Source: Vezdaea acicularis (taxonomy: Eukaryota). Taken from it: a stretch of 64,000 nucleotides of DNA. The notes below the pieces were generated by a model, which worked only from the letters and a program-made list of their open reading frames with translations, had not been told where the DNA came from and ran no database searches. Made by a program: the position numbers and the translations under genes. Below, in pieces: positions 11,791 to 38,047 of the stretch; within the stretch, counting starts at the first letter, position 1, and the number at the start of each line of letters is the position of its first letter. The stretch lies in assembly GCA_026025075.1 (NCBI GenBank), contig JAPEUI010000008.1, positions 1 to 64,000 of the forward strand, read 5' to 3'.

Positions 11791-11863
11791 GTGCCTTCGA
11801 GTGTGTGGCATTTAGCTATAGGGGAGCCTTCGCTCATGCGCCATCAATTTTGACCACAGCTTC
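11791..11863 (+). repeat. Single copy of the dispersed 46-bp unit plus the ATGCGCCATCAATTTTG(T/A)CCACAGCTT end motif
   Basis: gtgccttcgagtgtgtggcatttagctataggggagcc...atgcgccatcaattttgaccacagctt matches 23797-23868 and 32232-32303. It lies ~145 bp upstream of the NACHT-WD40 ATG. Confidence 0.8.
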
Positions 11864-16210: not shown

Positions 16211-16632
16211 GTTTGCATCTTCAAAGCTGTAGCAAAGGGACTCATGAATGTTTAGCTGTACACCCTCTCTGCTACCTAGTTCACCGTCTAAGTAATAAGC
16301 GCATTTCAGCCTGACTGCGCTGGAAGAGCGCTCGGTCACCGGAGAGCTGCAGTGCGGGATCGTAAGTGTTGTACATTTGCAAAATCGTGCCTCCCACATT
16401 AATCATACCCTAAGTACGGCGATCAACGAATTCATTCGTAATAAACTTAGCTCACAGATTACCTGGGGAGGTCTTCGATGTATCAGTTGAACAAATACCT
16501 CAGTGAGTGCAGGTAGTTCCTGATTCCTGGGAGTTATACCATATATTGGCGGTCTCGTAAATGTACCACACTTACGACCCCCTACTATCGGATAGGAAGT
16601 GGGTTGAGTAGTAAAGAAAACCTCAAAATCTA

Positions 16633-17826
16633 CAGTGCCATGTCATAAATGTTCGTCCGATTTAAGCGAAAAATGGTCGTCGCGACCCCAATCAATTAAT
16701 ACTTCGTATACCAGCCATCTGCCTCAATTACCGCGTTAATCCTTCATGGCATGCTATCTAATAGGTTCTGAAAGGAATCCTCCGGAATCTGCTCCCAAGA
16801 TTTAGGTAGAACTGAGCCCAAAACTTCCCTAATCTGCCCAGATCCTTTTGCGCGTGATAGTCGGCCCTCGTCAATCTCATGCATCCCATTTTTGAGCGGA
16901 AACCATTGATGTTCAATGGGATTTAGGTTAGGGGAATATGGAGGCCAATCTAATACCTTAATTCCCATATTTTCAAGCCATTGAGTGACTTGTCCAAAGG
17001 TATGAATTGGAGCATTATCATGCATAAATATCGTGTCTTCGTCTAGTAGAGTTGGAAGTTGAGTTTGTAGAAGGTCCAGATAGATTTTGCCAGTGATTCC
17101 ACCTTTTGCACTATTTGAATCCCCTTCCATTACCACTAACTCAGATCTCCTTTCACCGGAAAATGCTGCCCAGACCATCACTGAAATTCTCCCATTTGGA
17201 TTTGAATGTGTTATAGCGTAGGGCTTCCATTTGTCTTCTGGGGGGTCGAAGTACCCAAACTTGATCCATTCCAGACCCTCGTTGTACTGAACACTCATCA
17301 CTAAATGCCACCTTTGAGCAATCTTTAATTGTCCAATCTCTTCTTGCTAAACACCATTGAAGTCTTCTTTGGGCTCGAAGAGTATCAAGAGGAGGTCTCT
17401 TGGCAGCTTTCCATTTGCGCTGGCCTTCTGCAAAAATCCGACGTTTAAAGGAGCTGAGACTAAGCTGTGGACAGATCTGAGCATTGGCAAACCGATAAAT
17501 GGCTGTAGGCATAGCCTTAAACTGTTCAATTATTCCTTGGTCCTGTTCTTTGGTTGTTTTTCAAGGTCGGCCTTGTCGCGTCCGGGACTTGAACAGGCTT
17601 CGACCCATGCCTTCAGCGGCCCAGATACTCTGACAGGTGGTCTTAGGTACCCCTGTCTCACTTGAAATATCCCCAAAGCTCTTGCCTCCTGCCCTCAATC
17701 CACATATAAAAGCCCTCACGGTCGGGTCGTGCTCGCGGCGCTTTGGGATCGTTCTGATCGGTGGCATGTTTTTGGTGTGTCGCAAAAATTCACGAAAATC
17801 GGACGAACACTTATGACATGGCACTG
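16633..17826 (-). mobile_element. Tc1/mariner (IS630-Tc1) DNA transposon, 1194 bp, with a decayed transposase
   Basis: TIRs cagtgccatgtcataaatgttcgtccgattt and aaatcggacgaacacttatgacatggcactg; TA duplication at 16631-16632 and 17827-17828. HTH segment, FSDE, HDNAPIH and WPPYSPNLNPIE are split across frames with stops (e.g. MP*RINAVIEADGWYTKY). Confidence 0.95.
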
Positions 17827-18128
17827 TACTAGCCCGGCAAACTACGGCGGATTCTTACCAGCCATCTTTTGGCGTATACCCGAATTTGGGTTTTGAATCA
17901 AGATACGGGAGACAGCGGCTGACTGATTGCTTGCAGGGATCTGCGATTTAGGGACCATGTATCTCGGGAAATGTTCCTTGTAGTGACTCGAGGAAGATTA
18001 CCATTCCCGCCCCCCAACTCAAAATCTTCATCCTGCCCAGTGCGTATGCGGCAGTCGTCATAGAGAGATTTGAGAAACTTGAATGCTGGATGGATGGAGA
18101 TTTCTCCGAGAAGCACTAAGCACGTTCG

Positions 18129-18717
18129 AAGCGGTTGACGAAATTGATGGCGCTTAAGCAAGTGATGGGCATTTTTTACCCATCGGTATATTTATATGGG
18201 GATTGATGATAAATATTCTTAGTATGAGCTCAATAGTGCTGCTTCGGGTTCAGCCAGCAGCTTGGCAGAACGTTTTGTGCCTTCGAGCTTGTAGTGTTCG
18301 GCCATGGGGGAACTTCTTTTTTGTGCCTTCGATTAAGTAGCTTTTAGTTATGGGGGATCTTCCACTTATTGCCTTTGATTAAATAGCTTTAATTATGGGG
18401 GAACTTTCATGATATATCTTCGATCAAGTAGCTTTTAAATATGGGGGGACTCCCATTTATTGCCTTCAATTAAGTAGCTTTTAGCTATGGGGGAACTCCC
18501 GTTTGATACCTTCAATCAAGTAGCGTTTAGCTACGGGAAACTCCTGTTTAATGCCTTTGATTAAGTAGCTTTTAGCTACGGGGGAACTCCCGTTTATTGT
18601 TTTTGATTAAGTAGCTTTTAGCTATGGAAGAACTCCCGTTTTGTGCCTTTGATCAAGTAGCGTTTAGCTACGGGGGAACCCCCATTTAATGTGCCATCAA
18701 ATTTTGTCCGCAGCTTT
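18129..18717. repeat. Inverted-repeat-bounded unit containing ~9 tandem 46-bp repeats with a GGGGAAC(T/C)CCC mini-hairpin
   Basis: Left end aagcggttgacgaaattgatggcgc and right end gtgccatcaaattttgtccgcagctt are inverted. Units start at about 18278, 18324, 18370 and continue to ~18644. Confidence 0.85.
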
Positions 18718-19021
18718 GAGTATACATTAGGTCTCGCTCATTGCATAACAAGGTTGCATAGGGGAATGTTGGTGTTGAGGCTGAAAATGCTACTCAAAAC
18801 TAGACCGTCGCAATTGGTCAGTATAAATAGACCCATGTCCTGCGGTGGCAGCCTTGTGGAGGCACATCAACATCGTTTCTGAGGATCACGCAATGTCAAT
18901 AACGCCAGTTCACCGGAGCTTTCTGCCTTAAGACATCATTTTGGCTCCATTTAACCCTTGCACTAGATCCACAAACGCGACCCTTGCCACTTAATGCGGG
19001 GAGAGTCTACCATTTTTCAAG

Positions 19022-19318
19022 ATGCCTGGCAAAGATCTTTGTCTCCTGTCCCTCGACGGTGGCGGTGTGCGAGGATTGTCGTCACTTGCAATCCTTAAGA
19101 GACTTATGGAGACTATTAATCCGGAGGCACCACCAAAGCCTTGCGAATACTTTGATATGATTGGGGGAACAAGCACTGGTGGATTGATGGCTATAATGCT
19201 TGGTCGTCTGAAGATGGACATTGACAAATGCATCGAAGCCTACGTGGCACTGTTTGATCGAGTTTTCAAGACGAAACGGCACCGCGTCAAGTTAAATGGG
19301 CAAGTGCAAGGGCGTTTT
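19022..19318 (+). pseudogene. 5' fragment of the duplicated patatin-NB-ARC-TPR gene
   Basis: Near-identical to 32611-32908 (DGGGVRG, GTSTG). Similarity stops abruptly after ...GQVQGRF. Confidence 0.9.
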
Positions 19319-19377
19319 TTTAGCAGCAATTTATTGGTTAAGTCAAGGCCGTTTCTTCTAGAAGTGATAATCTTTCA

Positions 19378-20732
19378 TTATAGGTCGGCCAAAATAACGT
19401 TGCCGACCTTGTTTAATTGTCTTAATTTTACATAAGCAATATCCTCAGCACACTGGCAAGACTTGTTAGCAATGGCTTTGACTTGTAAATCTTCATCCTC
19501 GATATCATATTCGTGAATTACACGACATTTCATGCAACGAGGTGTGGGTTCAAACCAATTTCGTTGTTTAGCGTGTATAATTGGCGCAAAATGAGACTGT
19601 GCACACTCTCTTGCGTAAGTGAATGGCGCCCACTTTTTGCGATTTACCAGCGGGAGAACAAAAGGTACCTGATTAGGTGCCATTGGCGTGGGTTTGCGGC
19701 CAGCATACTCCTCAATCAAACGAACCGTTACCAGGCTCTGAAAATTGGCAAGTGCTATGCCAGTTGCGTTTCGAGTGTATCCAACTGCTTGGTATCGTCT
19801 TTCTGGTGTTGTAAGGTTCGTATCAGATTGATTACAAAAACGAGCTTTTAACTCTTCGTCATAATGATTTGAACCTTGTATAAACCGACGTTGCCGTAAT
19901 GCTGTAAAGTTCGTTGTCAAGGCTGGTACATTGACGTATCCCATATACATAACTGTGGAACCAATAATTAGACTTCTTTCCGGAAGAGTTGACTGAGTAA
20001 CAAAAATGCAATTAGAAAACCCATCGTGATTATCAGGATTATAATTAGCTGGGAAATGATTTGCTATGGCGATCTGTCGTAAATTTGCCTGAACGGCATC
20101 TGATAAATATCAAGTAAGTATATGCCTAAATCTTGTCCTGAATTGCTAAGGAATCAAGAAAGAACGTTCTTACCTGGATTTTTGATACGATCAGCTGCAT
20201 TGTGTACCATGAGGTATATTTGAACTACCAATTCTAATGGTGGTTCCGCCGGTATCATTTGCACCCGTGTAATGTCGTCATTAATGCTATTAACACCTTG
20301 TTCTAGCCAAGTCTTTGGTAAACTTGCAAGTACACTGAAGAAGTTGCCGAGGTTTCGCAAAAATGTAATCCAGTCCGGGCCCTCTGTTTGAGCTACCGAA
20401 TTCACTTCAGTCTGTTTGGATATCCATGATGAGTAGTGCGACATAGCACCATAAAAGTATAACATAATCCATGTTAGGCGGCTGGCTGAATTCACGACTT
20501 CGGAAATAAAAAACGATTGATATTTGGGATCTTGATAAAGATTATAGACAGAAGCCATCATCTTGGTTAAGTTATCTGTTAGGCTTGCATATTTTAAGAC
20601 TCGGCTGTTGATAAGCGCCCTATCTTTAGGTAAAAGACTGAGATCATAAGCTTTCCATGAAGCGACAGAGCCAACTGCCGCCCCCAGTGGTACTAATCTC
20701 TGGGAAATAAATGCGGCCAGTGTGGCTTCCAT
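19378..20732 (-). CDS. Module gene A1: unknown ~426-aa protein with C-terminal PRCMKCRVI...CQCAE (putative permuted zinc-deaminase-like domain)
   Basis: ORFs 20154-20732 and 19378-19950 join in frame through a GT-AG intron at 20100-20173 (...KNP/DAVQANLRQ...GFSNCIFVTQ...IIGSTVMYMG). Homologous to 24077-25196. The deaminase label is inference. Confidence 0.75.
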
Positions 20733-21064
20733 TTGATAGCTTTTCGGAAAAAAAGCTTGAATGATAGAAAAACTTTGGTCTTCAAGCTATTTGTTGCTCA
20801 CTCAACAGAAGATTTGCCTGCAGCATTAAGGTACGTCAACAGCTCAGCTCTAGACATGCTCACAGCTAAAACTCGGCTCCGGCCCTGCCATTTAGGGCTT
20901 TGACAGTGGCGCTTGCATGAAATGATAAATTGGATCATTTCACGGCCTTAACATCAGCATCAGGTTTGCACGTTAGTTGTGAACACCTGTGCAATATACA
21001 GAACCAGTCACTGCATAGAATTCTTGGGAGAAACCTTCCAGACCAAATTCTATATTACGAAGAA

Positions 21065-22115
21065 ATGGAGAAAATCAGCGTTACTCAAAGCCTTTTGGCT
21101 GATTTAAGTGAGTCAGAGGACCATTGCAACGCGTGGTCTTTTTAAGTCGTTGAACATGACTGACGTTTATTTAGGCTATAGCAATCTCCTTCAAACAGTC
21201 CAGTTACCCACTCAGAAAGCCCTGCAGCAATTGCAGCAGATTCAGCAAAAGATCGACACACTACCTAAATCTAGCAAGCCTATACAACCAGGGATGCAGC
21301 CCTCGAAGTTCTTAAAAGCCCTTGCTGAACTCAATACTGCAAATCCAGATACTCTTCAAGACTTTCTAAATGCGACCCAAGTCTGGCCCTCAGCCAATTT
21401 ACCCAAACCCATTCCTATAGGAACGCATGACAGTATACAATATTTTATCAAAGTTTCTGACAAAACTGTTCATCAAGATTCTAGCTCCGCTGCGATCCCG
21501 ACTCGTGAAGTTTTCTACGGGATCTTCACCTACGAGACACTAAGTATTTTGAGAAGTCAATCTACAACGACTCACCTTGATTATGACTCGCTAGCCAAAA
21601 ATGCGGATGATTCTTATGAGAGTTTTGTTTCTGAGGCAGAAAGAGTCCCGTTAGGCCAAACTATAATCACAGACCTCAAGTACGGGTTTGGCATTGGGAG
21701 GCTCTATCACAAAACATCAAAAGCAGCCGATATGGAGGACACTGGCTTCTACGTAATATGCAACGCTGTCGATAAGAGTATTTGGATTGCCTTTGATTTT
21801 GAGCCTTATGGCGAAACAGGCGATATCAACCTTATACAGCCAGAGTACGGTGATCCCTATGGAACGCTGCCTCTGGACACGCAGAAAATGGTGATAGGGG
21901 TTATGAGACTCTTCACAAAGGAGTGGACAGCGAGGAAACCCCTGTCTTTAGATGACGGAGATCCGTTTTGTAACGGGGCGGGCATTCCACTAACATGCAA
22001 GCTAGTGGCAAAATCAGCATTTGTAGCAGATGTGCTTAATGCCATCAAGGCTGGCAGGGCTAAAGATACATTAAGCAGGTCCTCATGGTCATTCAAAGGA
22101 CCTAAAGCCTCCTAG
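21065..22115 (+). CDS. Module gene B1: unknown ~327-aa protein, divergently transcribed partner of A1
   Basis: ATG at 21065 (MEKISVTQSLLADL). Intron 21108-21174 (gtgagt...ctgac...tag) rejoins ORF 21108-22115 in frame. Shares motifs with 26708-27709. Confidence 0.75.
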
Positions 22116-22133
22116 TACTTAACTCTTAGATGT

Positions 22134-23151
22134 GCGAGCACCGAAGGGGTACGAGAAGGCCAGGGGTTCAGATCACCCACCTGCGCTCAACAGGGTCAAC
22201 AACCTAGGCGTTCTGTATAAGGGTGAAGGCAAGCTGGCGGAAGCTGGGGTCATGTACCAGCGAGCATTGAAGGGGAGGGAGAAGGCCTTGGGTCCAGATC
22301 ACACATACACGCTCAACACAGTCAGCAACCTAGGCTTTCTTTACAGCAACCAAGGCAAGCTGGCGGAGGCTGAGGCCATGTTCCAGCGAGCATTGAAGGG
22401 TTACGAGAAGGCCTGAGGTCCCAATCACACATCCACGCTTGACACAGTCAGCAACCTAGGCGACTTGTACCGCAACCAATGCAAGCTGGCGAAGGCTGAA
22501 GCTATGTACCAGCGAGCATTAAAAGAATATGAGAAGGCCTGGGGTCCAGATCACACATCCGCGCTTGATACAGTCAACAACCTAGGCGTTCTATACAAGG
22601 CTCAAGGCAAGCGGGCGGAGGCTGAGGCCATGTACAGGCGAGCATTGAAGGCGAAGGAGAAGGTCTGGGGTGCAGGACACACATCTACACTTGACACAGT
22701 CAACAACCTAGGCAACCTGTACAGCGAGCAAGGCAAGCTGACGGAGGCTGAAGCCATGTATCGGCTAGCATTGAAGGGGTTCGAGAAGGCCTGGGGTCCA
22801 GATCACACATCCACGCTCAACACAGTCAACAACCTAGGCATCATGTACGGCAAGCAAGGCAAGCTGGCGAAGGCTGAGGCCATGTACCAGCGAGCATTGA
22901 AGGGTTGCGAGAAGGCCTGGGGTCCAGATCACACATCCACGCTCAACACCATCAACGACCTAGGCAATCTGTACATGTCTCAAGGCAAGCTGGCGGAGGC
23001 CGAGGCCATGTTTCAGCGAGCACTTAAGGGTTACGCAGATGCCCGAGGTCTTGCTCATCCGAGAACAGAGTTAATCAATAGAAAACTGCAAGCGCTACTG
23101 GAGAAAAAGAAAAGGCGAAAGCAAGATATTATCCGCAAATTTCTTTTTTAA
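22134..23151 (+). pseudogene. Orphaned TPR 3' fragment of the duplicated patatin NLR (7 repeats)
   Basis: Same repeat family and C-terminus (YADARGLAHP.TELINR.LQ...KKK) as 34371-36398. It has no start, an internal TGG>TGA at 22414-22416, and begins 19 bp after the B1 stop. Confidence 0.9.
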
Positions 23152-23597
23152 CAAATGGAAGCAATGGTCGAGTCTGAGAGATGGGGTTATGAGCCCAAAT
23201 TATGTTTACTTAAGAAGATACTCTACGAATGAGGGAAATCATGATAAGCAAAGCTTTTTATATAGAGCTTCCGGACCACGCTAATCTGATGAAATCTCAT
23301 GACGTCCGATCTCGCATTTCGGTCTTTTGAGAAGGCCTTCTATCGATTCCAAGCTTCATATCCAATTGCTGAACCAATTCAGGGTTGCCCGAAGCTATGG
23401 CAGCCAGGACAAGTTATGACGCGAAGGTGCTCTGAACAACACGGTTGGTTTAAAGTCGCAGCAGACGGGAAGGGAATCTACCGATGAATATGAGGAGGAC
23501 ATTCCCACGCCTGAGCTGCCCATCAAAAGATACTGACGCCGGCGTGAGCTTGTACCGCGGCAGAAATTTCCGAACCTCAGCCGCACTGTCTTCAGCA

Positions 23598-23868
23598 CGA
23601 TGCGGTGGACAAGATTGATGCCGTAGAGGCGAATAGTGGGCTTGTTTACCCATGGGCGCGCGTTACTTTCAGCAGTTCCGATATCGTTGGCAATCAATGA
23701 TGAACATTCTCAGTGTTGGCTCAATAGTACTACTCCTCGCTCTTGTTGGATTATTATACTCCGGGTTATATCTGCGGCCTGGCAGGGCCGATTTGTACCT
23801 TCGAGTGTAAAGCATTTAGCTACGGGGGAACCCCCGTTTAATGCGCCATCAGTTTTGTCCACAGCTTT
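23598..23868. repeat. Another copy of the inverted-repeat-bounded unit, with one 46-bp repeat
   Basis: gcggtggacaagattgatgccg...gctcaatag...ccttcgagtgtaaagcatttagctacgggggaacccccgtttaatgcgccatcagttttgtccacagcttt, colinear with 31991-32303. Confidence 0.8.
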
Positions 23869-24076
23869 GAAAGTAGACTAGTGGAGGATCAAATCAAAAT
23901 ATCACATTGGGGTGAAGACTAGACTACGAGATACTACTGAACCAAAAGAAGGTAAGAAGAACCATCGTCTCATCACTTAAAACCCACCAATCTCTCTCCG
24001 ATATGTGCGAAAAAAATAACGAAAAATCTTGAAGCATTGTAGACGAGTTGGATACCCTCCTGCTTTCCTGCTTTTC

Positions 24077-25196
24077 TCAACCGTGAGAAGTAGCCACACA
24101 CATAGGGTGGGCAACGGCCTCGGCACAGGAGAAAGTTGGGTATATTTGCTCGGTGTAGTTGTCTGGTTCGGCAACGCAAGAGTACCTGAAGATGACCCGG
24201 CAGCGTCGACAGCGGGTGCGAGGCGTCATTTCGGGGATGGCGTAGGACATGGCTCGATCATTGAGATGATTATAAGTAATCGGAGGCCCCAAGGCTGGGG
24301 GTAGAGCTGCAATTCGGGTCCATTCTGCCTGCAAGCGGCCATCGGCGCCGGCATACAATCCATTACGATAGGCCACTCCAAGGGGCCGTACGTCGCGTGC
24401 AAGTCGGTTGGTCAAACTGGTCAACTGAGTCCGATATATATCTGTCATGCGAGAGTTTTGTCGTGCGTCTTTTGCCCATTGGTCAAGATCCGTAAATGCA
24501 CCCCATTTGCTGTCCGACATTGGTGCAATCCACCTGTTGTTGGCAGTAGGAGGACGAACGGCCTGACCTTGGCAGAGAAACACACACTTTGCTATCCCAA
24601 TATTGGCCCAACGTACGCGGCCAGCTTGACGGAAAAAGGCATTGTTGAGTGCAGCAATAGCATTGGCTATCAAGAGATGTTAGAGCTTGCAATCAGAAGA
24701 TAGTAAGAGAAGTGATGAATGGTTTACCATGTGTGGCTGGGTTCCGGACCCTCAAGATCGTTTGAAACAGTAGTTCCAGGGGCGCTTGAGCAGCAATATT
24801 GGGAATTCCGGGATTACCAGCCCTCCATCCTGACCAGATATTGCTGCGGTGAGGAATCAAGGGAACGTAACCAGCTTGGTTGGCCATTGCTTGGGCAATT
24901 TGCCCGAGTTGGTTGATCTTGTTCATAAATAGTCTTTTAGCTTGAGCGCCTTGAAGGCCCCAATTGCATAGTTCCGCGACGCCTCGGAAGGCGTCTGAGA
25001 CGAGCCATAAGATCACATTAATCAGGTCCTTTGAAGACTGCTGGACTAGTAGACGGTCCACATCACCGCGTTTGAGTGTTCTTAGCATCACAATGGCCAC
25101 ATCTATAAACTTTTCAGTCACCTTGACTGCCCGGTGTGTCGGCACATTGTTGTTGAAAAATTGGGCCGAGTGCAAGGGACGATTCGGATCTGCCAT
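24077..25196 (-). CDS. Module gene A2: unknown ~352-aa protein with C-terminal PRTRCRRCRVI...FSCAE (putative permuted zinc-deaminase-like domain)
   Basis: ORFs 24693-25196 and 24077-24673 join in frame via intron 24667-24727 (gtaaac...ctaac...tag). Motifs PLELLFQ, GIAKCVFLCQ, RCRRCRVI and CAE parallel A1. Confidence 0.78.
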
Positions 25197-26707
25197 GATG
25201 CGCGTGATAGTGATAGTAGTGGAAGTGAGATTGAATAAATTTCTAATTCAATTCCTTATCAGATGAACGCTTTGTATTCCTTATCCACGAGCTTACCGTT
25301 TAGATTCTTACGACTTTGTGCTACTTTGGAGGCCTGGCTGAGATTCTCTGGATTAGGATCAGACTGGTCTTGCGTATGTTATATCTCTTAATAGCAATGA
25401 CTTATCTGAAAGGGTGATTAAAAAACTTCTTCCGTGTCGTAGATCTTTATAGTTTTGCGGACGTGGCACCGAGTAGCCAAGAGCTTTCTGTTCAAGATAA
25501 TGCTCCCCTAAGAAATACTTCCATCTCACTCGCCGGAGCATACAACACCCCAGTCTCAATGCACACGATTGTTTCAGCTGAGGCTTGAAGGCTCCCTTCG
25601 ATCCACTTACAGTTCTCCGATGCGCAGTCCTGGAGGGTTGCAACTGGCTTCCATGATTACTTCTGTCAAGGCAGTCATGTCAGCTGAAAAATAAGAGAAG
25701 CTGATGATAGCTGTTGCATGTGCAGCTGGTACACAATATGAAGAGATCAATAATGAAAGGTTACTTCTTCTAGAAGAAGCTGCCTCGACTTAACCAATGG
25801 ATTGCTGCTGAAAACGCCAGCGAGAGATACCAAACTTCACACCCGCGCGTGACGAGGGCCATTGTTCTTCAAAGGGAGTTAATGGGAGCATCCATACAGT
25901 TGTGGCTTCATGTAGGGTAGTATCTGCTTCCACTTGAATGAAACCGTAATGGTCTCGGATGAATGGAAGGCCTCTTCAAGATTGAAGCCTCATTCATTAA
26001 ATCAGCCAATCCCTTCCCGCATAGAAGTGAACTTGTTGTTTTTTCAGCTGATCCATGGCCTACGTAGATTCCTGCAAGGTAACGTTGATATAAACATGAG
26101 GGAAAGCGGCTTGCGTCTCGTATTCCATGTGCATCAAAACGCGGGGCAGCGGCCGGTTTCAACCTGCTTCCAAGAGTCCATCTCCAATCGAATCCTGACC
26201 AACCATTCTATTTGGGCTTGTGTACAATTATGACCGTTCCGGTGTCACCGCTAGTTACCTTGATTGTAGGTACTGCCATGATCCATTTTGCTACTAGATG
26301 CGGTCGGTGTGCCACTTTATCTCGAGGTCGGTGAAGCCATTTGTTGCAATGTTCAGGGTTACATCCGGACCTCGATGCCCCAAGGTTCCGACGCCACACA
26401 CGCTCAAGGGAGGGATTGGTCTTGCTCCTTATTGGATATTTTCTTTGGGGCATGAGCTGGACCCGGGAAGTGTGCAAGCGTTTTGGGACAGATGCTTGAT
26501 CCCTAGAAGTTCGAAGACGCAGCTCGAATTTTGAAAGTGGCAGGCTTTCACGGGTCCTAAAGCGTCCGTTTGGAATGCTGCCGCCTTTTCCTATATAACC
26601 GGAGTCCTCAGATTTCTCCTCACAAGATGCTTAAAATTGCGCATAGATATTCGACATCTCATCATAGTATCTAACCTACCTTGCGAGAACAGAAACCGTA
26701 ATTCAAG

Positions 26708-27709
26708 ATGGGTCAACCGGCCTCCCCGGACAATATCACTGCAGAAATGGAAAACAAGTTTCGCGGTATTCAGGGAAAAATAAGCACGTTAACCGGTAAG
26801 CATAAGGGCGCCGCTCCCTTTCCCCTTTTCCCTTCCCCAGCAACACCAAACACTTGTGCTCATCATCTTCCAGATGAGGACATCCAGCTAGAACTCGACC
26901 GACCCCCTAAGACTGACACGGACACATTTTACATGTGGCTGGTTGATGCTGAAGGCGAGAGGTTGGAGAAGGAGGTGTTTCGCGAACCGCCCACCCTTGC
27001 CGAGTCATCGGCCAGCATTAAAGGAACCGATTTCAAAGATCCCTCTTCCATTCTGAACCTGTACTCCAATACGCAAGGCTTCGGCGTACCGTTGCCATTG
27101 CGTATTGGGAAGTACAGCGCCGACAGGGAATACCACTGCTCAGTTGATTTCGAGTCCAGCCTTCTTCCGATTGATTTCCCGTCCGATACGCAGAAGGTTG
27201 ACACCGGCCTCACGTACCTGAAATCTGAACCGCCCAATCCGGCTCTCCCAACCTTTGTCTATCAGCTAGGCCGCCTCTTGCACGCAGAAACACCCACAGC
27301 CGAGGAGACCAAGTTGGAAGACTCGTGCTTTGTGTTTGCCATCGATGTCGATCGGACTGCTTGGGCAATCTGGAATCCAGCCAGCGTCGAGGGAACTTGG
27401 GAAGAAGAGCCAAAGCCCGTCCGCCCAATCAACGGGGTCTTCCCCGGATTTGAGAAGAATCCCTGTGCCGCCGTCCCGCTTGGAACCGTCAATGAGCTTC
27501 TTCCCGTCGGTGACGGATCATCGTCAAAAGTCATCCAGATTGACCCCAAGACCTTCGTGGAGGCTAAAGAAAAATCTACTCTGAAATTTGGTGAAGTAAC
27601 TGAAGCCGCTTGGGCGACGCTCAGTAAGGTTTCAACCAAATTCAGCAATGCTGCCGGCCTCATCAATCCAGCAACGACAGCAGCGTTGCAGGTACCCAAA
27701 GCGAAATGA
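26708..27709 (+). CDS. Module gene B2: unknown ~307-333-aa protein, divergently transcribed partner of A2
   Basis: 333-codon ORF with upstream TATATAA (~26592) and a probable in-frame intron at 26796-26873. VPLPLRIG, FPSDTQKVDTGLT, LGRLLH and LEDSCFVFAIDVDRTAWAIWN align with B1. Confidence 0.78.
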   Translation: MGQPASPDNITAEMENKFRGIQGKISTLTGKHKGAAPFPLFPSPATPNTCAHHLPDEDIQLELDRPPKTDTDTFYMWLVDAEGERLEKEVFREPPTLAESSASIKGTDFKDPSSILNLYSNTQGFGVPLPLRIGKYSADREYHCSVDFESSLLPIDFPSDTQKVDTGLTYLKSEPPNPALPTFVYQLGRLLHAETPTAEETKLEDSCFVFAIDVDRTAWAIWNPASVEGTWEEEPKPVRPINGVFPGFEKNPCAAVPLGTVNELLPVGDGSSSKVIQIDPKTFVEAKEKSTLKFGEVTEAAWATLSKVSTKFSNAAGLINPATTAALQVPKAK

Positions 27710-28011
27710 TCATCCGGCACCAGACAATTATGAGGTAGGTAGGGCTTGAGCCTAGGTGTCTAGAGTAGGTGGAGGAAGTCTTGCTTGGAGTGAGATCGGT
27801 CTTTGTGTCAAGGGAAAGGGGCTTGGAAGGTTACAGTAAATTGAAGTCTGCGGAATGCTTGACGGGGAAAGGGTATCTCTCAGATAGTTGTCAAATTGAT
27901 TCGATCAGCTTTCCCAATCGTTAAACTAATCTTTTTGTCTCTAACGTCTGAAGCCTCGTACAGCAACGATAAGAAATCAGTCTTCGTGATCACATTGTAG
28001 TTCAGGCTGCA

Positions 28012-28094
28012 CGGGACTGCTGAAAGTAACGCATGCCGATGGGTACTCATGTCCACCATTCGCTTATGCGCCATCAATTTTGTTCCCCACTTCG
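28012..28094. repeat. 83-bp inverted copy of 23598-23680
   Basis: Ungapped alignment to the reverse complement of 23598-23680; manual count about 65/83 identities. Confidence 0.8.
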
Positions 28095-28683: not shown

Positions 28684-30441
28684 TTAGCCGAGCCAACCCT
28701 TGAGCTTAGACCAAGTACTACTAACTCCAGACCACACGTAATCTACGACAGACTTCCCAGCCTTTTCTGCCATCATGCGAACCTCTTGAAGCTGCTGTTT
28801 GAGATCTTTCATTTCAGCTTCGCGAGAAAGCTCGAGTGCTTTTGCATCTGCCTCGGCTTTATGAAGCTTAGCTTCAAGCTCTTTTTGCTGATCTTCATTA
28901 ATCTTCCTCATGATCTCACTATGAGTTCGATCTTTCTCTGCAAGCTTGTCTTCAAGCTCCCTTCTCCATTTTGCTTCCAGTAACAAAATTTCTTGGTTAA
29001 TAGCTGCTCCTGCAGCGGTCTGCACAAGAGACTTTTTCTCATCCACAATCTCTCTTTGAATTTCGAGAACAATCTCTGGATTGCCAAGAGCGTGGCTCAA
29101 TACGCGCAATGCTGAGTCTTGAGTGTTGTTATGGCGTTCCATTTTTGCTCCATATTGAAGAGGCACTTTCCAAAAGTCTTCACGAAGCTCTTTCTCTCTC
29201 TCTCTTCCAATTTCCTCGTCCTGGAGGGCATCCCATTTGGTTGTTACGAGAACAACGTTGGCTAGCGCGTCGGTACCGCATAGTTTGAGCATCATATCAA
29301 GATTCTTAACCGCAGAGCCTTTCATTCTAGCTTCTGTAATCTCACGTAGGTATATAATACCAGTGAGTTTCACCCCTAAAGTATAACTTGACTATATGTC
29401 AGTATGATAATCACAAGAATGACGACAGAATCCTTACTTAAACTCCATCCAGTTAGCAATTCGTCTGAGTACCTCCGTGTCACTGAGATTTGTATCATCA
29501 AAACCTGGTGTATCGACTAATTTGATGATGTGAGACTTGTAGTGAAAATCGGTCTCATCGACATCTGCAGTGCATGATCTAGAGCCATGTCCAACATTCA
29601 TGACTCGAGAACCGCTGACACAGTTGATAAACTATCACTGAAGATTATCTCATGCCCGGACAACAATCCTGGGAATTGTCTTACACTGCTTTTTCCAGCG
29701 CCCGTTGGCCCCATAATGCTAAACTCGATGTTAGCATAGATTTTGAGAGAGTTCTATACAATCTTGCAATTACTAACCCAATAAGGTTCCTATATACTGG
29801 AGGCGCCTCAACGGGAGGAGGGACCCTTGTGCGGGCTGGCTTACGACGAAGAGTGCTCGTACCGTAACATTGGGGTTGCGTGCGGCGATCTCGAGGCATC
29901 TCTCGCGCAGGGTTAATTGATTTGGTCCTCCCATCGTCTATTGAAGTGTTAGATTTGGTAAGTTGAAGTGAGAATCGGATACGTTGCCACCGTCATGCCA
30001 CGCTGGTAAATCCTCTACTCTCAGATCTTCGAACTCCTCCTCAACATAGCGGGAAGGGCGTTTGCCGGATTCTTCGGAAACCTTAAAATTTTCCTCTCGT
30101 TTATGAGTATTAAGTATTTCAAATGACAAATCATCAGCATAATCCATGTCACTGTTTGTTTTCCGGAGATTATTTCGAGCTTTTGAGGGATCAAAACTCA
30201 ATGCAGCTAAGTCGACCTCTACTGCATCCTCGTCGTCGTTTGAATCGGCCAACTCAGTGTTGCCTCTAGAGATTCGACTACTAGAAACTGGTGAGATCTC
30301 TTCCTTATCTGAGGGCTCCGCGACTCTATCAGGATGATGGCTAGTTCGGCGACGCATGAATAATGGATTAGATTGCATTTCGTCCAGAAGTTCAGGCGGA
30401 GGGGAGGATGGAGAAGTAGCGGAATCTTTGTAGGCAGTCAT
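28684..30441 (-). CDS. Fungal P-loop GTPase (G-domain / MMR_HSR1-AIG1-like) with disordered N-terminus and C-terminal coiled coil; several introns
   Basis: Spliced minus strand gives IMGPTGAGKS (G1, ~29687-29717), VGHGSRSCT (G2), LVDTPGFDDT (G3), GIIYL and VVLVTTKWD (G4). Linkage of the 5' exon (29938-30447 ORF) is less certain. Confidence 0.82.
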
Positions 30442-31990
30442 AGTCACAACAACGTCAAAGATTTAACCTTATGCCTTCAACAGTTTGCGTGAGATAGGGC
30501 GTCCTCAATTTAAGGAAAAGCTGGTGTTTATGATTGAGGGTGAAATGTGGGCTCTTAGTCTAATGGGTTCTCAGCCTTGTCGATTCTCAGCCTCGTGGGT
30601 TTTCAGCCTCATCGGTTCTCAGTCTTGTAAACCATCCAATGATGATTCCGGACCGGATGCTCTCTTCATATTGGCATGCTCTATCTAATTTCATTAGATA
30701 ATTTGACTGGGCCAGATCAGGCAGTGCAAGATACCGGGGCAATCCCGCAATGGAAGTAGGCCGGAGTCACTTGGAGTCGACCAACAGGATCTTATCAACG
30801 AAGCCACAGCGGGTTGGCCTCTGAAAGATTGCTTGTTGCAGACCATTGCAACATCAACCTTGCATGCCAACCAAAACCAGCTCACCTAGAAATGAGGCGC
30901 ATTAATCGGTTGGGTGATAGCTAATGCCACTACAAAATATTCTATTACATGACAGTAGACGGTTTTTTGCCCTCAGTAGGTAACGATTGACCAACCAGGC
31001 TGATCAGCTTCATCCGGGTGCTGCAGCCACCTTCACAATTCAGCCTGACCTCTCAAACTAACCAATCGTTTTGCTTTGCGTACCTACACGACTCTTAGCA
31101 CAATGCAGAGGAGCTGGCACGCGCAGTATGAGAGAATGAATGGGAGCCGAATAAACAGAGGAAATACTTTGAGACCTTTATCCGTTCTCTTATCTATAGC
31201 GTCAACTCTTCTCGTTCCTTTCATTAAATTGTATGCACAGTGAAGCAGTCTCGTAGTTCGGCGTACGCAGCTACTCCGTAAGCATTCAGGATCGAGATAC
31301 TAGGGCGGCAGGTCGACTCCAAATCGGAATAACAACGGGAGCAGTGCTCGAGGCAAGCTTTCCCATTCCTCCCGTAGGGTCACCACCACCACCTGACAGT
31401 CTGATAGAAACCGCTTTCAGGTATGGCATATACTTGGTACAGGGGGGGGTTACATTCGCAAAATTGTGCCTCTTACATTTATCATGTCCTAGGCACTGCG
31501 ATCAACGACTCCATTCATAAGAAACCTAGCTCACTGGTTACCTGGGGAGGTCTTCAATAGATCAGTTCAACAATAGCCTCATCGAGTGCATGCGGTTCTT
31601 GATTCCTGGGTGTTATACCATATATGTACAACACTTACGAACCCCCACTGTAAGAAGTGGGATGAGCAGTAAAGAAAACCTCAAAATCTGCTAGCCTAGC
31701 GCACCACAGCAGATTTTCACCGCCCATCTTTTGGCGTATATCCGAATTCTGGTTTCGAATCAAGATACGGGAGACAGCGGCTGGCTGATCGCTTGCAGGG
31801 ATCTGCGATTTTGGAACTGTGTATCTCGGGAAATGTTCCCTGTAGTGACTCGAAAAAGATTACCCTTCCCGCCCCTCGACTCAAAATCTTCATCCTGCCC
31901 AGTGCGTATGCGGTAGCCGTCATAGAGAGATTTGAGAAACCTGACCGCTGGGTGGATGGAGATATCTCCGAGAAGCACTGAGCACGTTTG

Positions 31991-32303
31991 AAGCGGTTGA
32001 CGAAATCGATGGCGCATAAGCGAGCGATGGGCATTTTTACCCATCGGTGTATTTGTATGGGAATCCATGGTAATTATTGTTAGTATGAGCTCAATAGCAC
32101 TGCCCCGGGTTTAGCCTGCGGCTTGGCAGAGCCGTTTTATGCCTTCGAGTTTGTAGCGTTTAGCTATGGGGGAACTCCCGTTTTGTGCCTTCAATTAAGT
32201 AGCGTTTGGCTACGGGGGAACTCCCGCTTTGTGCCTTCGATCAACTAGCGTTTAGCTACGGGGGAACTCCCGTTTAATGCGCCATCAATTTTGTCCACAG
32301 CTT
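31991..32303. repeat. Inverted-repeat-bounded unit with three tandem 46-bp repeats, upstream of the intact patatin NLR
   Basis: aagcggttgacgaaatcgatggcgcat ... atgcgccatcaattttgtccacagctt; units at about 32140, 32186 and 32232. Confidence 0.85.
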
Positions 32304-32610
32304 TGAGTATACGTTAGGTCTCGCTCGTTGCATAACGAGGTTGCGTAAGGGAATGTTGGTATTAAGGCTGAAAACGCTACTCAAAACCAGACCGTCTTCA
32401 TTGGTCAGTATAAATGGACCCGTGTCCTGCAGTGGCAGCCTTGTAGAGGCACCATTAACATCGTTTCTGAGGATCACGCAATGTCGGTAACGCCAGTTCA
32501 ACAGAGCTTTCTGCCTCAAGACATCATTTTGGCTCCATTTAGGTCTTGCACTAAGTACAGGAATGCGACCCTCGCCACTTTTATAGGGGGAAATTCTGCC
32601 ATTCTTCAAG

Positions 32611-35600
32611 ATGCCTGGCAAAGATCTTTGTCTCTTGTCCCTTGACGGGGGCGGGGTGCGAGGATTGTCGTCACTTGCAATCCTTAAGAGACTTATGGAG
32701 ACTATTAATCCGGAAGCACCACCAAAGCCTTGCGAATATTTTGATATGATCGGGGGAACAAGTACTGGTGGATTGATGGCTATAATGCTAGGTCGTCTGG
32801 AGATGGACATTGACAAATGCATCGAAGCCTACGTGGCGCTGTTCGATCGAGTTTTCAAGAAGATACGGCACCGCGTTAAGTTGAATGGGCAAGTGCAAGG
32901 TCGTTTTGATACAGAGGAGCTAGAAAGGGCGATTAAAGAAATAGTAGGGAAGAGGGACCAAGCGGGCCAAGAGGCACTTCTGAAATATTCAGAAAATCAA
33001 AAGTGCAAGGTGTAGGTTTTCTGGAGACTGAATTTGCAAATACACCAGTAATGATGCTGACAACACCAAGTTTTGTATGTGCCATGAGCAAGGAAACGGC
33101 AGACACAGTACTTTTCACATCGTATCCATCTCGTGGATCATCCGACATGTACAACAAGACTCAAATCTGGGAAGCAGCTCGAGCTACATCTGCAGCATCA
33201 TCTTTCTTTGATCCTATCAAGATTGGTTTATTCGAAGAAGAGTTTGTGGATGGCGCCGTTGGAGTCAACAATCCAGTGGCACAGCTTTGGAACGAGGCCA
33301 AATTTATTTGGTCAGATGAGCCTCTGGAGGGCAACATCAAGTGCCTGGTTTCTATCGGTACCGGTGTTCCATCGCTAACTCCTTATGGATCAAGTCTTCT
33401 TGAAATTGCGGAAACCCTCAAACAGATTGCCACGGAGACAGAAAAGACTGCAGAATCCTTTCACCGAACGCATTCGGACCTTGACGACGGTAACCGCTAT
33501 TTTCGATTCAATGTTCAGCACGGACTTGAGAGCATTGGCTTGGAAGATGCAGCGCAGAAGAATAGGATCATGGCTGCCACGAGTCGTTATGTGGCCTTAG
33601 AAAGTGTCATGAGGCAGATGAAGCTTTGCGGAAACAATCTGGCTACAAGAGAATGTGGGTCAATTTTTGCTTGATATTTATCATCTTGTTAAATTTTTAA
33701 ATAGATAACGGACCTTACAAAATACCCTTTAGCATGAAAGGCTTGCCAATTGTGTCTAGATTCGTAGCTCGTGACGAAGAGCTAGACCATATTAAATTAT
33801 GCTTGATGCCTAAACCAACCCGCAATACGCGCCGCAAGATATATGTCTTACATGGACTTGGAGGTATAGGGAAAACCCAGCTGGCTGTTGAGTATGCTCG
33901 ACAACAACAGAAGATCTACAGCTCCATCTTTTGGCTCAACGGCAGCAGTAGGGACGAGGTTAGACAAAGCTTTGCAGAAATTGCACGACAGCTACCACGC
34001 GGCCAAATCCCAGACTCTAGCAGAATTACGACCAAGGTGTCAGGCGAAAAGCTTGATGCAATAATCAACAACGTGCTCGATTGGTTCAATATATCTACAA
34101 ACGATCGGTGGCTTCTCATATTTGACAATGTTGATCGAGATCACTCCACTGAGATAGGCGATCCTCTCGCGTTTAATTTTGAAGACTATTTTCCAGGCGC
34201 CGATCATGGTTCCATCTTGATTACAAGTCGACTGCGTCAGTTAGGGCAGTATGGCACAGCTTCAAAAAAATTGACGAGAATGAATGCACAGCAAGGGAAA
34301 GAAGTCTTGGAGCAAAGGATAGGAAGATCGCTTGAAGGTGATGAACATGAAAAACTCATTGTAAGTCGATATGCTGACAACGGAAGGCCTTGAGAAGATT
34401 GTTGAGCTTGTTGGCGGTCTACCTCTTGCACTAGCCCATGCTGGGTCATTCATGCAAGCAACAACTACGAAAGTTGACAAATACATTGAATTCTATCAAG
34501 AATGGGATACGATCTTCAACTGCAGGAGTGCCTTATTAAGAGACTATCCCAATCGCAGCATCTTGACTACGTGGACTCTGTCATATAGTCATGTCGAAAG
34601 CAAGGACTCAGATGCTGCAAAGATGCTTGATCTTTTTGCACATCTTAACCATTCAGATATTTGGTATGAGCTCTTTCCACATGCTCTTGAGGATGAGATT
34701 ATTTCAAAGGAGATGACGCTTGATTGGTTTCGACAATGCGTCAGCAAGGAGATCAATTTCACCCAGAAGATACAAACGCTCCTAGATTATTCCTTAATAG
34801 AGACACGACTGGACACTTTCTCATATACAGTACATCCGGTTGTACATGAGTGGTGCTTCCGTTCAAACACCAAAAACGATGACGAGATCGTTCCTTTAGC
34901 AATCATTACAGTCGGCTTAGCTTGCTCTTCAATCGATACCTCGACTGATTGGCTATATCGAGAACGCCTGGTTCAGCACTGTGATGAGATTTGCTTTTGG
35001 ACTGAAAATAAAATTGAGAACTTGCAAAGTCTTAAGCATTGGATGCATTCTCTAAATAGTTCTTATCATAGCGTCGCATACTTTTTGTTTGATCAAGGCA
35101 AGCTACGGGAGGCTGAGGCCATGTACCAGCGAGCATTGAAGGGGTATGAGAAGGCCTGCGGTCCAGATCACACATCCACGCTCGACACAGTCAATAACCT
35201 AGGCAGCCTGTACAATGCTCAAGGCAAGCTGGTGGAGGCTGAAACCATGTACCAGCGAGCATTGAAGGGATACGAGAAGGCCTGGGATTCAGATCACACA
35301 TCCACGCTCGACACAGTCAACAACCTAGGCGCTCTGTACGAGGCTCAAGGTAGGCTGGTGGAGGCTAAGGCCATGTACCAGCGAGCATTGAAGGGGAAGG
35401 AGAAGGCCTGCGGTCCAGATCACACATCCACGCTCTCCACGGTCAACAACCTAGGCATTCTGTACAAGGTTCAGGGCAAGCTGGCGGAGGCTGAAGCCAT
35501 GTACCGGCGAGCATTGAAGGGGAAGGAGAAGGCCTGGGGTCCAGATCACACATCCACGCTCGACACAGTCAACAACCTAGGCATTCTGTACAAGGCTCAA

Positions 35601-36398
35601 GGCAAGCTGGTGGAGGCTAAGGCCATGTACCAGCGAGCATTGAAGGGATACGAGAAGGCCTGGGGTCCAGATCACACATCTACGCTCGACACAGTCAACA
35701 ATCTAGGCGCTCTGTACGAGGCTCAAGGTAGTCTGGTGGAGGCTAAGGCCATGTACCAGCGAGCATTGAAGGGGAAGGAGAAGGCCTGGGGTCCAGATCA
35801 CACATCCACGCTCAACACAGTCAACAATCTAGGCGGCCTGTACAAAGCTCAAGGCAAGCTGATGGATGCTGAAACCATGTACCGGCGAGCATTGAAGGGG
35901 TACGAGAAGGCCTGGGGTCCAGATCACACATCCACGCTCAACACAGTCAACAACCTAGGCAGCCTGTACAAGGCACAAGGCAAGCTGACGAAGGCTGAAA
36001 TCATGTACCAGCGAGCATTGAAGGGGAAGGAGAAGGCCTGGGGTCCAGATCACACATCCACGCTCGACACAGTCAACAACCTAGGCAACCTGTACAAGGC
36101 TCAAGGCAAGCTGGCGAAGGCTGAGGCCATGTACCAGCGAGCATTGAAGGGGTATGAGAAGGCCTGGGGTCAAGATCACACATCCACGCTCTCCACGGTC
36201 AACAACCTAGGCGCTCTGTACGAGGCTCAAGGCAAACTGGCGGAGGCTGAGGCCATGTACCAGCGAGCATTGATGGGTTACGCAGATGCCCGAGGTCTTG
36301 CACATCCGACAACAGAGTTAATTAATAGAAATCTGCAAGAATTACAGGAGAAAAAGAAAGGGCGAAAGCGAGATATTATCCACAAACTTCTCTTCTAA
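32611..36398 (+). CDS. NLR-like protein: patatin-like phospholipase - NB-ARC - TPR (PLP-1/vic2-type architecture); 3 introns
   Basis: DGGGVRG, GTSTG, ARATSAA and FVDGA patatin motifs; GLGGIGKT, WLLIFDNVD, ILITSR and GLPLAL; nine NNLG-type 42-aa TPR units. Introns at about 33012-33070, 33658-33704 and 34338-34387. Confidence 0.93.
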
Positions 36399-36673
36399 CG
36401 AAGTTAAGCAATGGCTGAGTTTGTGAGAGATGGGGTTTATGAGCCCAAATTATGTTTAATTAAGATAATTCACGAATGAGGGAATTGATGATAAGCAAGG
36501 CTTTTTGTGTGGAGCTTCCGCACCACGCTAATCTAATGAAATCTTATGACGCCCAATCTCGCATTTCAGTCTTTTGGGAAGGCCTTCTATCGATTCCAAG
36601 CTTCATATCCAATTGCTGAACCAATTCAGGGTTGCCCGAAGCTATGGCAGCCGTGACGACTTATGACGCGAAG

Positions 36674-36964
36674 ACGCTTTTAGCTATAAGGGAACCCCCG
36701 TTTAACGCGCCATCAATTTTGTCCAGGACCGTTTTGTACCTTCGTGTGTAAAGCATTGAGCCATGGGGGAACACCCATTTAATGCACCATCAATTTTGTC
36801 TAGGACCGTTTTGTACCTTCGTGTGTGAAGCATTGAGCCATGGGGGAACCCCCATTTAATGCACCATCAATTTTTTTCCAGGACCGTTTTGTACCTTCGA
36901 GTGTAGAGCATTGAGCCATGGGGGAACCCCCATTTCATGCACCATCAATTTTGTCCACCGCTTC
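36674..36964 (+). repeat. Tandem array (~3.6 x 77 bp) of the same hairpin plus end motif
   Basis: aggaccgttttgtaccttcg recurs at 36725, 36802 and 36880; each unit ends ...ggggaac(a/c)cccattt(a/c)atgcaccatcaatttt... Confidence 0.88.
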
Positions 36965-38047
36965 GAGCCATAATTGGCTCGGTCCTCAGGCTTTATATAG
37001 GCACTGAGTGCAATGCCGATCAAGAGGGGACCGGATGTAAAGAGATCGTTGAGCGTTAGACGTTCGAGGGTTACTATGAAACTTAACCCCCACTTCTGGT
37101 TCCACGGGTACTCTCAACTGAGCAGAGGAGCCTCTTGCTCGTATTCAAACAGATATATCTTCATCGTCCAATGCATGAAACGAATTATAAAAGGGGCGGC
37201 CCAAGGCGTGACAAGTGACTTGCTGACTCATCTCGAACTTGCTTCACTACCGATAGAAGGTCATTCGCAATGCGTAGAGGTATCGAAACTGACCACAACT
37301 CTCAAGGTCATTATCATCAAGTTACGCATAAGTTCTTCTTTCTCTCCTTTCCTATGGCCCAGTCACCAGAACGGGCTCTATATCAAGTTAGCGGCGGGAG
37401 GGCCGCCGACGCTCCACTGGGTCTGGCGCTGCCCCTAAGCAGCACCGGATCTCGGGTCCCGGTGCGGGCGACGACGCTGAGTGGTGGGATGGCTAAGCGA
37501 TGCCGCGCCAACGCGGCAAGACGCACGCCGGACGGCTCTCGGCTGCCGCGACCCGCCCTGGTGGGAGCGAAATCTTTTAGGGCGCAGCAGGGCAGGGCAG
37601 GGCATGGCAGGGCCTGGCGGTGTGTGATGTGTGACGGGCACTCCGATCACATCCCTCAAATCTCCTTCCGTCGTGCAACGGCATCGCACTGAAAAACCCC
37701 TTCTCCTCTTACGACCCTATTCTTGGATCGACCCCTCATCGCTCCTCATCTGCATTCCTGCGCGAGAGCGGCTGCACAGATCGCCATGCGGCTTCGCTTC
37801 ATTGTCTGCGTTTGACTTCTCTCCTCCTGCCTCCGCAGGTTTTGTTTACACGGCCCTTGCCGGAGTCCGAGCTCTGTGCGACAAACTCTGCGGGAACAAC
37901 CCTTCGTTGCGAACCTCATCTCCGCTACGTTGATCGTTACGCTCTTCCCAATGTTTGAAATAATCATCGCTCCAAAAAGCCTTCCTTTCACCTTCGCCTG
38001 AAGCTGCGACCATTCAAATCAAGCGGGCGATCTCGTGCCCTTCAGCC

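Follow-up and report, generated by a model that had tools for sequence, protein, structure and literature searches.

The first 64,000 nucleotides (forward strand, positions 1 to 64,000) of Vezdaea acicularis contig JAPEUI010000008.1, hereafter the window, carry two head-to-head gene pairs, A1-B1 (type 1) and A2-B2 (type 2). Both lie in an island of NOD-like receptor (NLR) genes. We read them, with moderate confidence, as two ancient paralogous copies of one module composed of divergent A and B genes. An earlier note, made from the sequence of the window, had described two diverged copies of an unassigned gene pair and proposed that A is a toxic enzyme and B its cognate inhibitor. The genes and spacers of the two pairs are as follows.

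19378-20732, minus strand: A1 gene, 426 amino acids (aa); exon 1 20732-20174, exon 2 20099-19378
20733-21155: A1-B1 intergenic region, 423 bp, shared by both genes
21156-22115, plus strand: B1 gene, 319 aa, intronless in the favoured model
24077-25196, minus strand: A2 gene, 352 aa, deep A1 paralogue; exon 1 25196-24728, exon 2 24666-24077
25197-26707: A2-B2 intergenic region, 1511 bp, holding an inverted 65-nt copy of the A1 3′ end (25750-25814)
26708-27709, plus strand: B2 gene, probable deep B1 paralogue; open reading frame (ORF) of 333 aa, 307 aa when spliced

All four frames are open at the coordinates given in the earlier note, and every motif quoted there was found in the translations. 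The two pairs have the same geometry, as it described, with A on the minus strand and B on the plus strand. The A1 intron (20173-20100, GT..AG, 74 nt) and the A2 intron (24727-24667, 61 nt) are both phase 1. They lie within a variable linker downstream of the PLELVVQ/PLELLFQ motif and are about 4 codons apart in the hhalign alignment of the two proteins, in agreement with the equivalent site proposed for them.

The B1 start was moved from 21065 to 21156. The downstream start is more likely because a start at 21065 followed by an intron would delete the LGY(S/G)NLL motif, which lies about 8 residues from the start of the B1 homologues. The earlier ATG, at 21065, probably opens an upstream ORF or belongs to the 5′ untranslated region. 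The B2 coordinates were retained, but the single-exon frame was not: a 78-nt phase-1 intron (GTAAGC..CCAG) follows residue 29. The window is fungal: the B2 frame is identical to an NCBI protein of the lichen fungus Vezdaea acicularis (P0052) except for 26 residues removed there as an intron. The A1-B1 spacer is presumed to function as a bidirectional promoter.

Homology between the two pairs

Pairwise BLASTP of A1 against A2 gave no significant match. An A1-family profile matched A2 exon 2 at 91.5 % (E 8.6e-7), and the A1 and A2 families matched each other, profile against profile, at 96 % (E 4.5e-9) in the region of the C-terminal cysteine motif. When the spliced proteins served as masters, hhalign gave 97.8 % (E 7.6e-13) in a collinear alignment of 304 columns, which upholds the protein match claimed for A1 and A2. 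The proteins were also cut into thirds. Cognate thirds gave E values of 2.2e-4, 5.4e-4 and 1.5e-10, and all three beat all six non-cognate combinations (E 0.14-0.78). A2 was the best non-self match of an A1 hidden Markov model (HMM) among the window ORFs (E 0.0045). These profile comparisons show A1 and A2 to be homologous along their whole length.

The B proteins are more distant. BLASTP of B1 against B2 gave E 0.006. In the profile-profile check the match asserted between them was above chance by hhalign E value (0.015 and 0.0018), but the probabilities were 2.9 % and 14.7 %. A B1-family HMM run on 1298 window ORFs ranked B2 first of 1297 non-self ORFs, yet at E 5.3. Shuffled versions of B2 reached its score with this HMM in 4/3000 cases, and those of its relative P0053 in 0/3000; a second shuffle count gave 1/400 and 0/400, respectively. 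Mean Smith-Waterman scores against 21 B1-type proteins lay above shuffles by z 5.5 for B2 and z 9.4 for P0053.

B1 and B2 were further compared in four segments. Segment S3-S3 gave E 7.5e-5. Segments S1-S1 (E 0.092) and S2-S2 (E 0.025, LPxPxxIG) each top their row; S1 holds the shared motif IQxKIxTL, which was absent from the earlier list of motifs. S4-S4 gave E 0.25, and some non-cognate segment scores better in the same row. The 12 non-cognate values span E 0.05-0.82. The segment limits were chosen after the motifs had been seen, and the test somewhat favours the homology hypothesis. B1 and B2 are probably homologous as judged from these sequence comparisons.

The earlier observation that the pairs lack DNA similarity holds for the coding parts but not for one piece of 65 nt. 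This piece (19317-19381) runs from the final codons of A1 through its stop into the 3′ flank, as far as the boundary with the NLR remnant described below. Its inverted copy in the A2-B2 spacer is 83-85 % identical. In the spacer around this copy, searches detected no coding relic resembling A, B or patatin. A patatin-like or A-like relic suspected by eye in the spacer was unsupported in tblastn and HMM searches.

Protein families, distribution and linkage

The N-terminal third of A1 has no recognised fold; the middle of the protein contains HDGFSNCIFVTQS, and the cysteine motif RCxxCR...SCQCAE lies in its C-terminal part. B1 comprises N-terminal helices followed by a beta-rich domain with EDTGFYVICNAVDKSIWIAFDFEPYGETGD. 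As in the earlier note, neither family was recognised: no match was found in Pfam, NCBIfam, PADLOC or PDB sequences. Pfam gave no match to the A and B proteins of the window at E up to 0.1, and no recurrent family among 21 B1-type and 25 A2-type members at E up to 10. NCBIfam and PADLOC profile searches gave nothing below E 0.18, and the best PDB sequence-profile matches were at E 0.59 and 0.85. In the ESM Atlas, B1 scores reached at most 0.81, with caspase-like leads only, and the A homologue P0080 had no usable match.

Domains expected of incompatibility systems or toxins were also sought. A and B gave no match to HET, NLR, gasdermin, HeLo/SesA or other incompatibility domains, and the SesA domain of the window's own NLR did not match them (E 0.38-0.52). 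In A, library searches at E up to 10 did not detect a domain of toxin, nuclease, protease, pore-forming or HET type. No match to the SUKH Pfam profile was found in the 21 B1-type members, also at E up to 10. Hydrophobic windows were absent from A and B at the cutoff of 1.6 used for a transmembrane segment.

The predicted B1 model is fair, with a predicted local distance difference test score (pLDDT) of 71 and a predicted template modelling score (pTM) of 0.67. It has helices at residues 20-75, a beta-rich body at 86-289 and a final helix. Foldseek found nothing in the PDB that matched this model at E up to 0.001. VIA-align comparison with 48,161 chains gave 0 at Z >=5, and the best Z of 3.8 is within noise. 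The weak rows of this comparison include 3d5p (Z 3.5), 2icg (2.6), 3ffv (2.6) and 8bd1 (range 2.6-3.5), all within noise; we take the first three to be SUKH-type immunity proteins and the last to be a toxin-immunity entry. The profile, PDB and B1-model searches pointed to no catalytic family, motif or fold in A or B.

Across the A1-type and A2-type families, RCxxC(R), (S)CAE and a fourth cysteine are invariant or nearly so. In type 1 the fourth cysteine makes up a CxC; in type 2 it follows after about 8 residues. Sub-threshold zinc-ribbon Pfam matches were found in 3/25 A2-type members (E 0.021-0.11). The A C-terminus is probably a small zinc knuckle, to judge from this pattern. The GFSNC/IAKC cysteine is not invariant in type 2 and is therefore unlikely to be catalytic.

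Relatives of all four proteins were collected. The A1 and B searches covered near-query lengths, with full-length A models >420 aa and fused forms outside their scope. B1-type relatives numbered 51 of 830 candidates at E up to 0.001, counting the window's own cluster. Named sources are Peltigera, Letrouitia, Physcia and Vezdaea aestivalis. The best named relative is from Peltigera (75 % identity); that of Vezdaea aestivalis is 59 % identical over 42 % of the query. The A1 exon 2 query found 28 A1-type relatives among 203 candidates, again counting the window's own, with Pseudocyphellaria and Xylographa as named sources. The earlier description of the pairs as fast-diverging does not fit pair 1: in named lichen genera such as Peltigera, Letrouitia and Physcia, its relatives are still about 43-75 % identical and retain long invariant motifs.

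Type 2 is distributed differently. Exhaustive phmmer with A2 exon 2 gave 25 cluster representatives, its own included. All are 105-435 aa long, and therefore none is fused to an NLR. Xylographa bjoerkii contributes a second protein to this set, and Fusarium pseudocircinatum contributes one. B2 relatives are B2 itself and P0053, which is 79 % identical. Metagenome scans yielded no relative of B2 (118 pattern-matching stretches) or of the B1 family (39). Xylographa has both A types, on longest recorded contigs of 76,191 and 279,903 bases, which marks the types as old paralogues and not as products of local duplication. The named homologues of either type are Peltigera leucophlebia MMC31_003128, Letrouitia Q9214_002953, Physcia stellaris G7Y79_00001g003260, Vezdaea aestivalis M1814_005847, Pseudocyphellaria aurata MMC07_009665, Xylographa bjoerkii MMC18_007232 and MMC18_001412, and Fusarium pseudocircinatum FPCIR_12711.

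Linkage of the type-1 partners was assessed from contig records. For 9 of the 28 A1-type matches, one being the window's own, the longest contig is identical in size and source to that of one of the 51 B1-type matches. A tenth coincidence through a cluster member brings the total to 9 non-self cases, with a shortest contig of 4571 bp. As a control, 0/11 longest-contig sizes of A2-type proteins coincide. A1-type and B1-type partners in the 9 non-self cases probably share one contig. Over 10 type-1 pairs, including that of the window, A and B distances are correlated (Mantel r 0.944, 0/5000 permutations), which agrees with the proposal that A and B diverge as a unit, and the mean distances are equal (A 0.39, B 0.375). 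The correlation shows only that nothing breaks the unit.

Both families are undescribed. In literature titles and abstract openings, neither family, nor such a pair in lichen fungi, was found described.

The replaced NLR core and its surroundings

A domain scan of the window bore out the NLR-island setting of both pairs. The island further holds ankyrin and F-box/WD40 genes. The NLR genes and the parts of the duplicated copy that surround A1-B1 are as follows.

3.2-6.8 kb: NLR with TPR repeats
12-16.2 kb: SesA-NACHT-WD40 gene
17829-19318, plus strand: left flank of the cassette, an 85-89 % duplicate of 31691-32907 (NLR 5′ flank, first patatin exon)
19319 to about 22130: A1-B1 cassette, 2.8 kb, its limits set where homology with the intact NLR ends
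22134-23426, plus strand: right flank of the cassette, an 85 % duplicate of 35381-36673 (last TPR repeats, 3′ flank)
32587-36398, plus strand: intact patatin-NB-ARC-TPR NLR paralogue, the reference for the replaced part 32908-35380

The A1-B1 cassette stands where 2.47 kb of NLR core was in the duplicated copy. It extends past the stop codons by about 60 nt at the A1 end and by about 12-18 nt at the B1 end. The NLR core has been replaced, and the disrupted copy is therefore dead. The position of the type-1 cassette within an NLR gene implies that the pair moved as a unit at least once.

Sequencing runs that contain this DNA number 5, and none is registered as RNA. The arrangement was examined in contigs from four runs. 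In run X1, positions 19237-22378 are covered by a single contig of 3142 nt that shows 5 differences. Run X5 belongs to a second study, and its contigs cross the two cassette junctions with about 96 % identity. This shows the arrangement to be real and common to a related strain. The X5 contigs cover none of 24218-27826. No empty site, that is, a contig joined across the cassette, was seen in the four runs, and the contig joints that were listed fall at dispersed repeats. Between X5 and the window, coding pieces differ by 1.4-2.8 % and NLR remnants by 4-4.4 %. The lower difference in A1 and B1 is a crude hint of constraint on both genes. The G+C fraction is 0.424 in the cassette and 0.499 in the window, and that at third codon positions of A1 (0.358) is the lowest among 20 window ORFs. 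No signature of repeat-induced point mutation was found. No terminal repeats or target-site duplication were seen at the cassette ends, which were read by eye.

Remnants of the disrupted gene persist on both sides. The patatin remnant (18995-19318) has 96 % protein identity to the intact copy. The TPR remnant (22123-23151) retains six register-shifted 126-nt repeats, with an in-frame stop at 22414-22416. A Tc1/mariner-like remnant (16631-17828) contains a DDE_3 transposase fragment (16744-17346, minus strand) and is bounded by inverted ends of 40 nt with 90 % complementarity. The last position of this remnant, 17828, lies directly next to the first of the NLR duplication, 17829.

Pair 2 starts 206 nt beyond the repeats that close the NLR copy. 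It is bracketed by an inverted repeat.

23598-23680: left arm of the inverted repeat, 83 nt, 78 % complementary
28012-28094: right arm, partner of 23598-23680

This repeat is a dispersed element with further copies at 18120-18189 and 32000-32047. Arrays of 46-nt tandem repeats and related arrays with spacings of about 77-78 nt are found at 18251-18700, 23783-23870, 32105-32306, 36676-36966 and 11791-11862. They flank both NLR copies and are also present elsewhere. Many run contigs diverge at the tandem arrays, and the array family is therefore dispersed in the genome.

Other genes lie to the right of the pairs. The gene at 28684-29631 (minus strand), next to pair 2, has a GTPase-like VDTPGFDD in an upstream exon, followed by a long coiled coil; the part tested gave no confident Pfam match. 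Long frames with no Pfam family at E up to 1e-5 are 38494-40971 (plus strand, 825 aa), 43003-44535 (minus strand, 510 aa) and 50242-52179 (minus strand, 299 + 345 aa). A gene with a MutL C-terminal domain (57617-59737, minus strand) and Serinc (61448-62825, minus strand) are housekeeping genes and mark the end of the NLR-rich stretch.

Interpretation and comparison with known systems

In the reading we prefer, that of two ancient paralogous copies of one divergent A + B module, A would be a soluble protein of about 350-430 aa with three collinear conserved parts and a 3-4-cysteine end (RCxxCR ... CAE). B would measure about 310-320 aa and combine helices at the N-terminus with a beta-rich domain. 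Type 1 appears to be widespread in lichen-forming Lecanoromycetes, where it would be kept as a linked pair under purifying selection. The A side of type 2 seems more diverse, with members such as those of Xylographa and the Fusarium protein, and its B side is apparently rare in databases. The shared promoter may keep A and B co-expressed in balance. A and B would act together, probably as a complex.

Several observations count against this reading. Profile probability for B1 and B2 is at most 62 % in one segment and 14.7 % overall, and is never confident. The spacer is 1.5 kb in A2-B2 versus 0.42 kb in A1-B1. Type-1 linkage elsewhere is inferred from identical longest-contig sizes, not from neighbouring DNA, and the linkage evidence beyond the window concerns type 1 only. 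A common phylogeny would by itself give two genes such a Mantel correlation. The predicted model of A1 exon 2 is unreliable (pLDDT 50.2) and too poor for a fold search.

Conserved divergent pairs with a bidirectional promoter include histone H2A-H2B, GAL1-GAL10 and Aspergillus niiA-niaD. The A-B pairs resemble them in their head-to-head arrangement, the 423-bp A1-B1 spacer, the long-kept linkage and the matched divergence rates. They differ from these pairs in belonging to unknown families, in having two deep paralogous versions, in lying in a repeat-rich NLR region and in the location of one copy inside a broken NLR gene. The A C-terminus may also resemble small zinc ribbons and knuckles (CxxC ... 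CxC or C..C), as the retained RCxxCR, (S)CAE and fourth cysteine suggest.

A poison-antidote or allorecognition pair is an unlikely alternative explanation. Under it A would be harmful alone, B would neutralise its cognate A, and loss of B, or its mismatch with a non-cognate A, would be lethal to the cell, which would let the pairs persist and spread. The tight conserved linkage and matched divergence of A and B are in keeping with this, as are the deep divergence of two pair types separated by 4 kb of an NLR island and the movement of a cassette into an NLR gene as a unit. The weak structural rows of B1, with chains that we presume to be SUKH or toxin-immunity proteins, point the same way and are within noise by the tool's own note. 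Against it, A has no toxin-type domain and B no immunity profile at E up to 10. The type-1 orthologues are well conserved across the named lichen genera, not hypervariable. The strain of the second study has the same cassette at 96-98.6 % identity, with no divergent haplotypes evident.

Linked allorecognition pairs of fungi include het-Q1/het-Q2 and het-B Bh/Bp of Podospora and sec-9/plp-1 and cwr-1/cwr-2 of Neurospora. Like these, each A-B pair joins two genes in tight linkage that evolve as one unit among NLR/HET-type genes, and Neurospora plp-1 has the patatin-NB-ARC-TPR architecture of the gene broken by the A1-B1 cassette. Unlike these, A and B have no HET, gasdermin, protease, SNARE, NLR or PMO domains, and the type-1 orthologues are conserved across lichen genera instead of forming hypervariable haplogroups. 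We know of no incompatibility phenotype for the A-B pair. Poison-antidote comparators are Spok, wtf, Sk-2 rfk-1/rsk and polymorphic toxins with SUKH immunity proteins. A and B share with such pairs their compact size, adjacency and movement as a unit. They differ from toxin-immunity pairs in matching no toxin or immunity profile and in a structural Z of at most 3.8 for B1; Spok and wtf are single genes, whereas A and B are two. Linkage, mobility as a unit and setting fit the toxin-antidote idea, but type-1 conservation and the missing toxin or immunity signature do not; we hold it to be unlikely. More doubtful still is a broader proposal in which A-B would be a self-contained, transferable cassette of lichen fungi, made of two protein families that lack known relatives. 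It would be a eukaryotic counterpart of toxin-immunity or addiction modules, would inactivate NLR genes by inserting into them and would exist in at least two non-cross-reacting types that accumulate next to each other.

Less probable again is a mobile or horizontally moving two-gene cassette, or cargo, that lands in repeat-rich NLR regions and is selfish or neutral. Borders just beyond both stop codons inside a duplicated NLR suggest such an element, and the low G+C content of the cassette, with the lowest third-position value in A1, could reflect it. The inverted repeat around pair 2 could be read in the same way, but it is dispersed and has other copies. The Peltigera B1 relative is closer (75 %) than that of Vezdaea aestivalis (59 %), an identity pattern that paralogy explains equally well. 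A Peltigera pangenome preprint reports Starship-like elements and cites horizontal transfer in lichen fungi. Opposing these points, the cassette ends carry no terminal inverted repeats or target-site duplication, and the four runs contain no empty site. No transposase or tyrosine recombinase was detected beside it; the sole DDE_3 remnant lies 1.5 kb off and has its own ends.

Least probable is a duplication of A alone, with B1 and B2 unrelated, the geometry due to chance and no type-2 module: the hhalign probabilities of 2.9-14.7 %, the HMM E value of 5.3, the S4-S4 result, the single B2 relative besides itself and the long A2-B2 spacer with its foreign debris would suit it, but B2 ranks first of 1297 with that HMM, shuffles seldom or never reach the scores, 3/4 cognate segments top their rows at predicted motifs (S3-S3 most strongly), and B1 and B2 are similar in size and stand on the same side and strand beside a proven A paralogue.

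The preferred reading, two ancient copies of one A + B module, would matter for the biology of lichen-forming fungi. These fungi are poorly annotated, and a module conserved as a pair across several named lichen genera, with two deep versions in NLR-rich, repeat-rich DNA, is a good target for new biology there. The clean replacement of an NLR core provides a dated, checkable example of NLR-region remodelling. If A and B form an ordinary complex, they would still establish two protein families not described before and, probably, a new zinc-binding motif. If they are an addiction or recognition module, they would constitute a new two-component system in fungal non-self biology.

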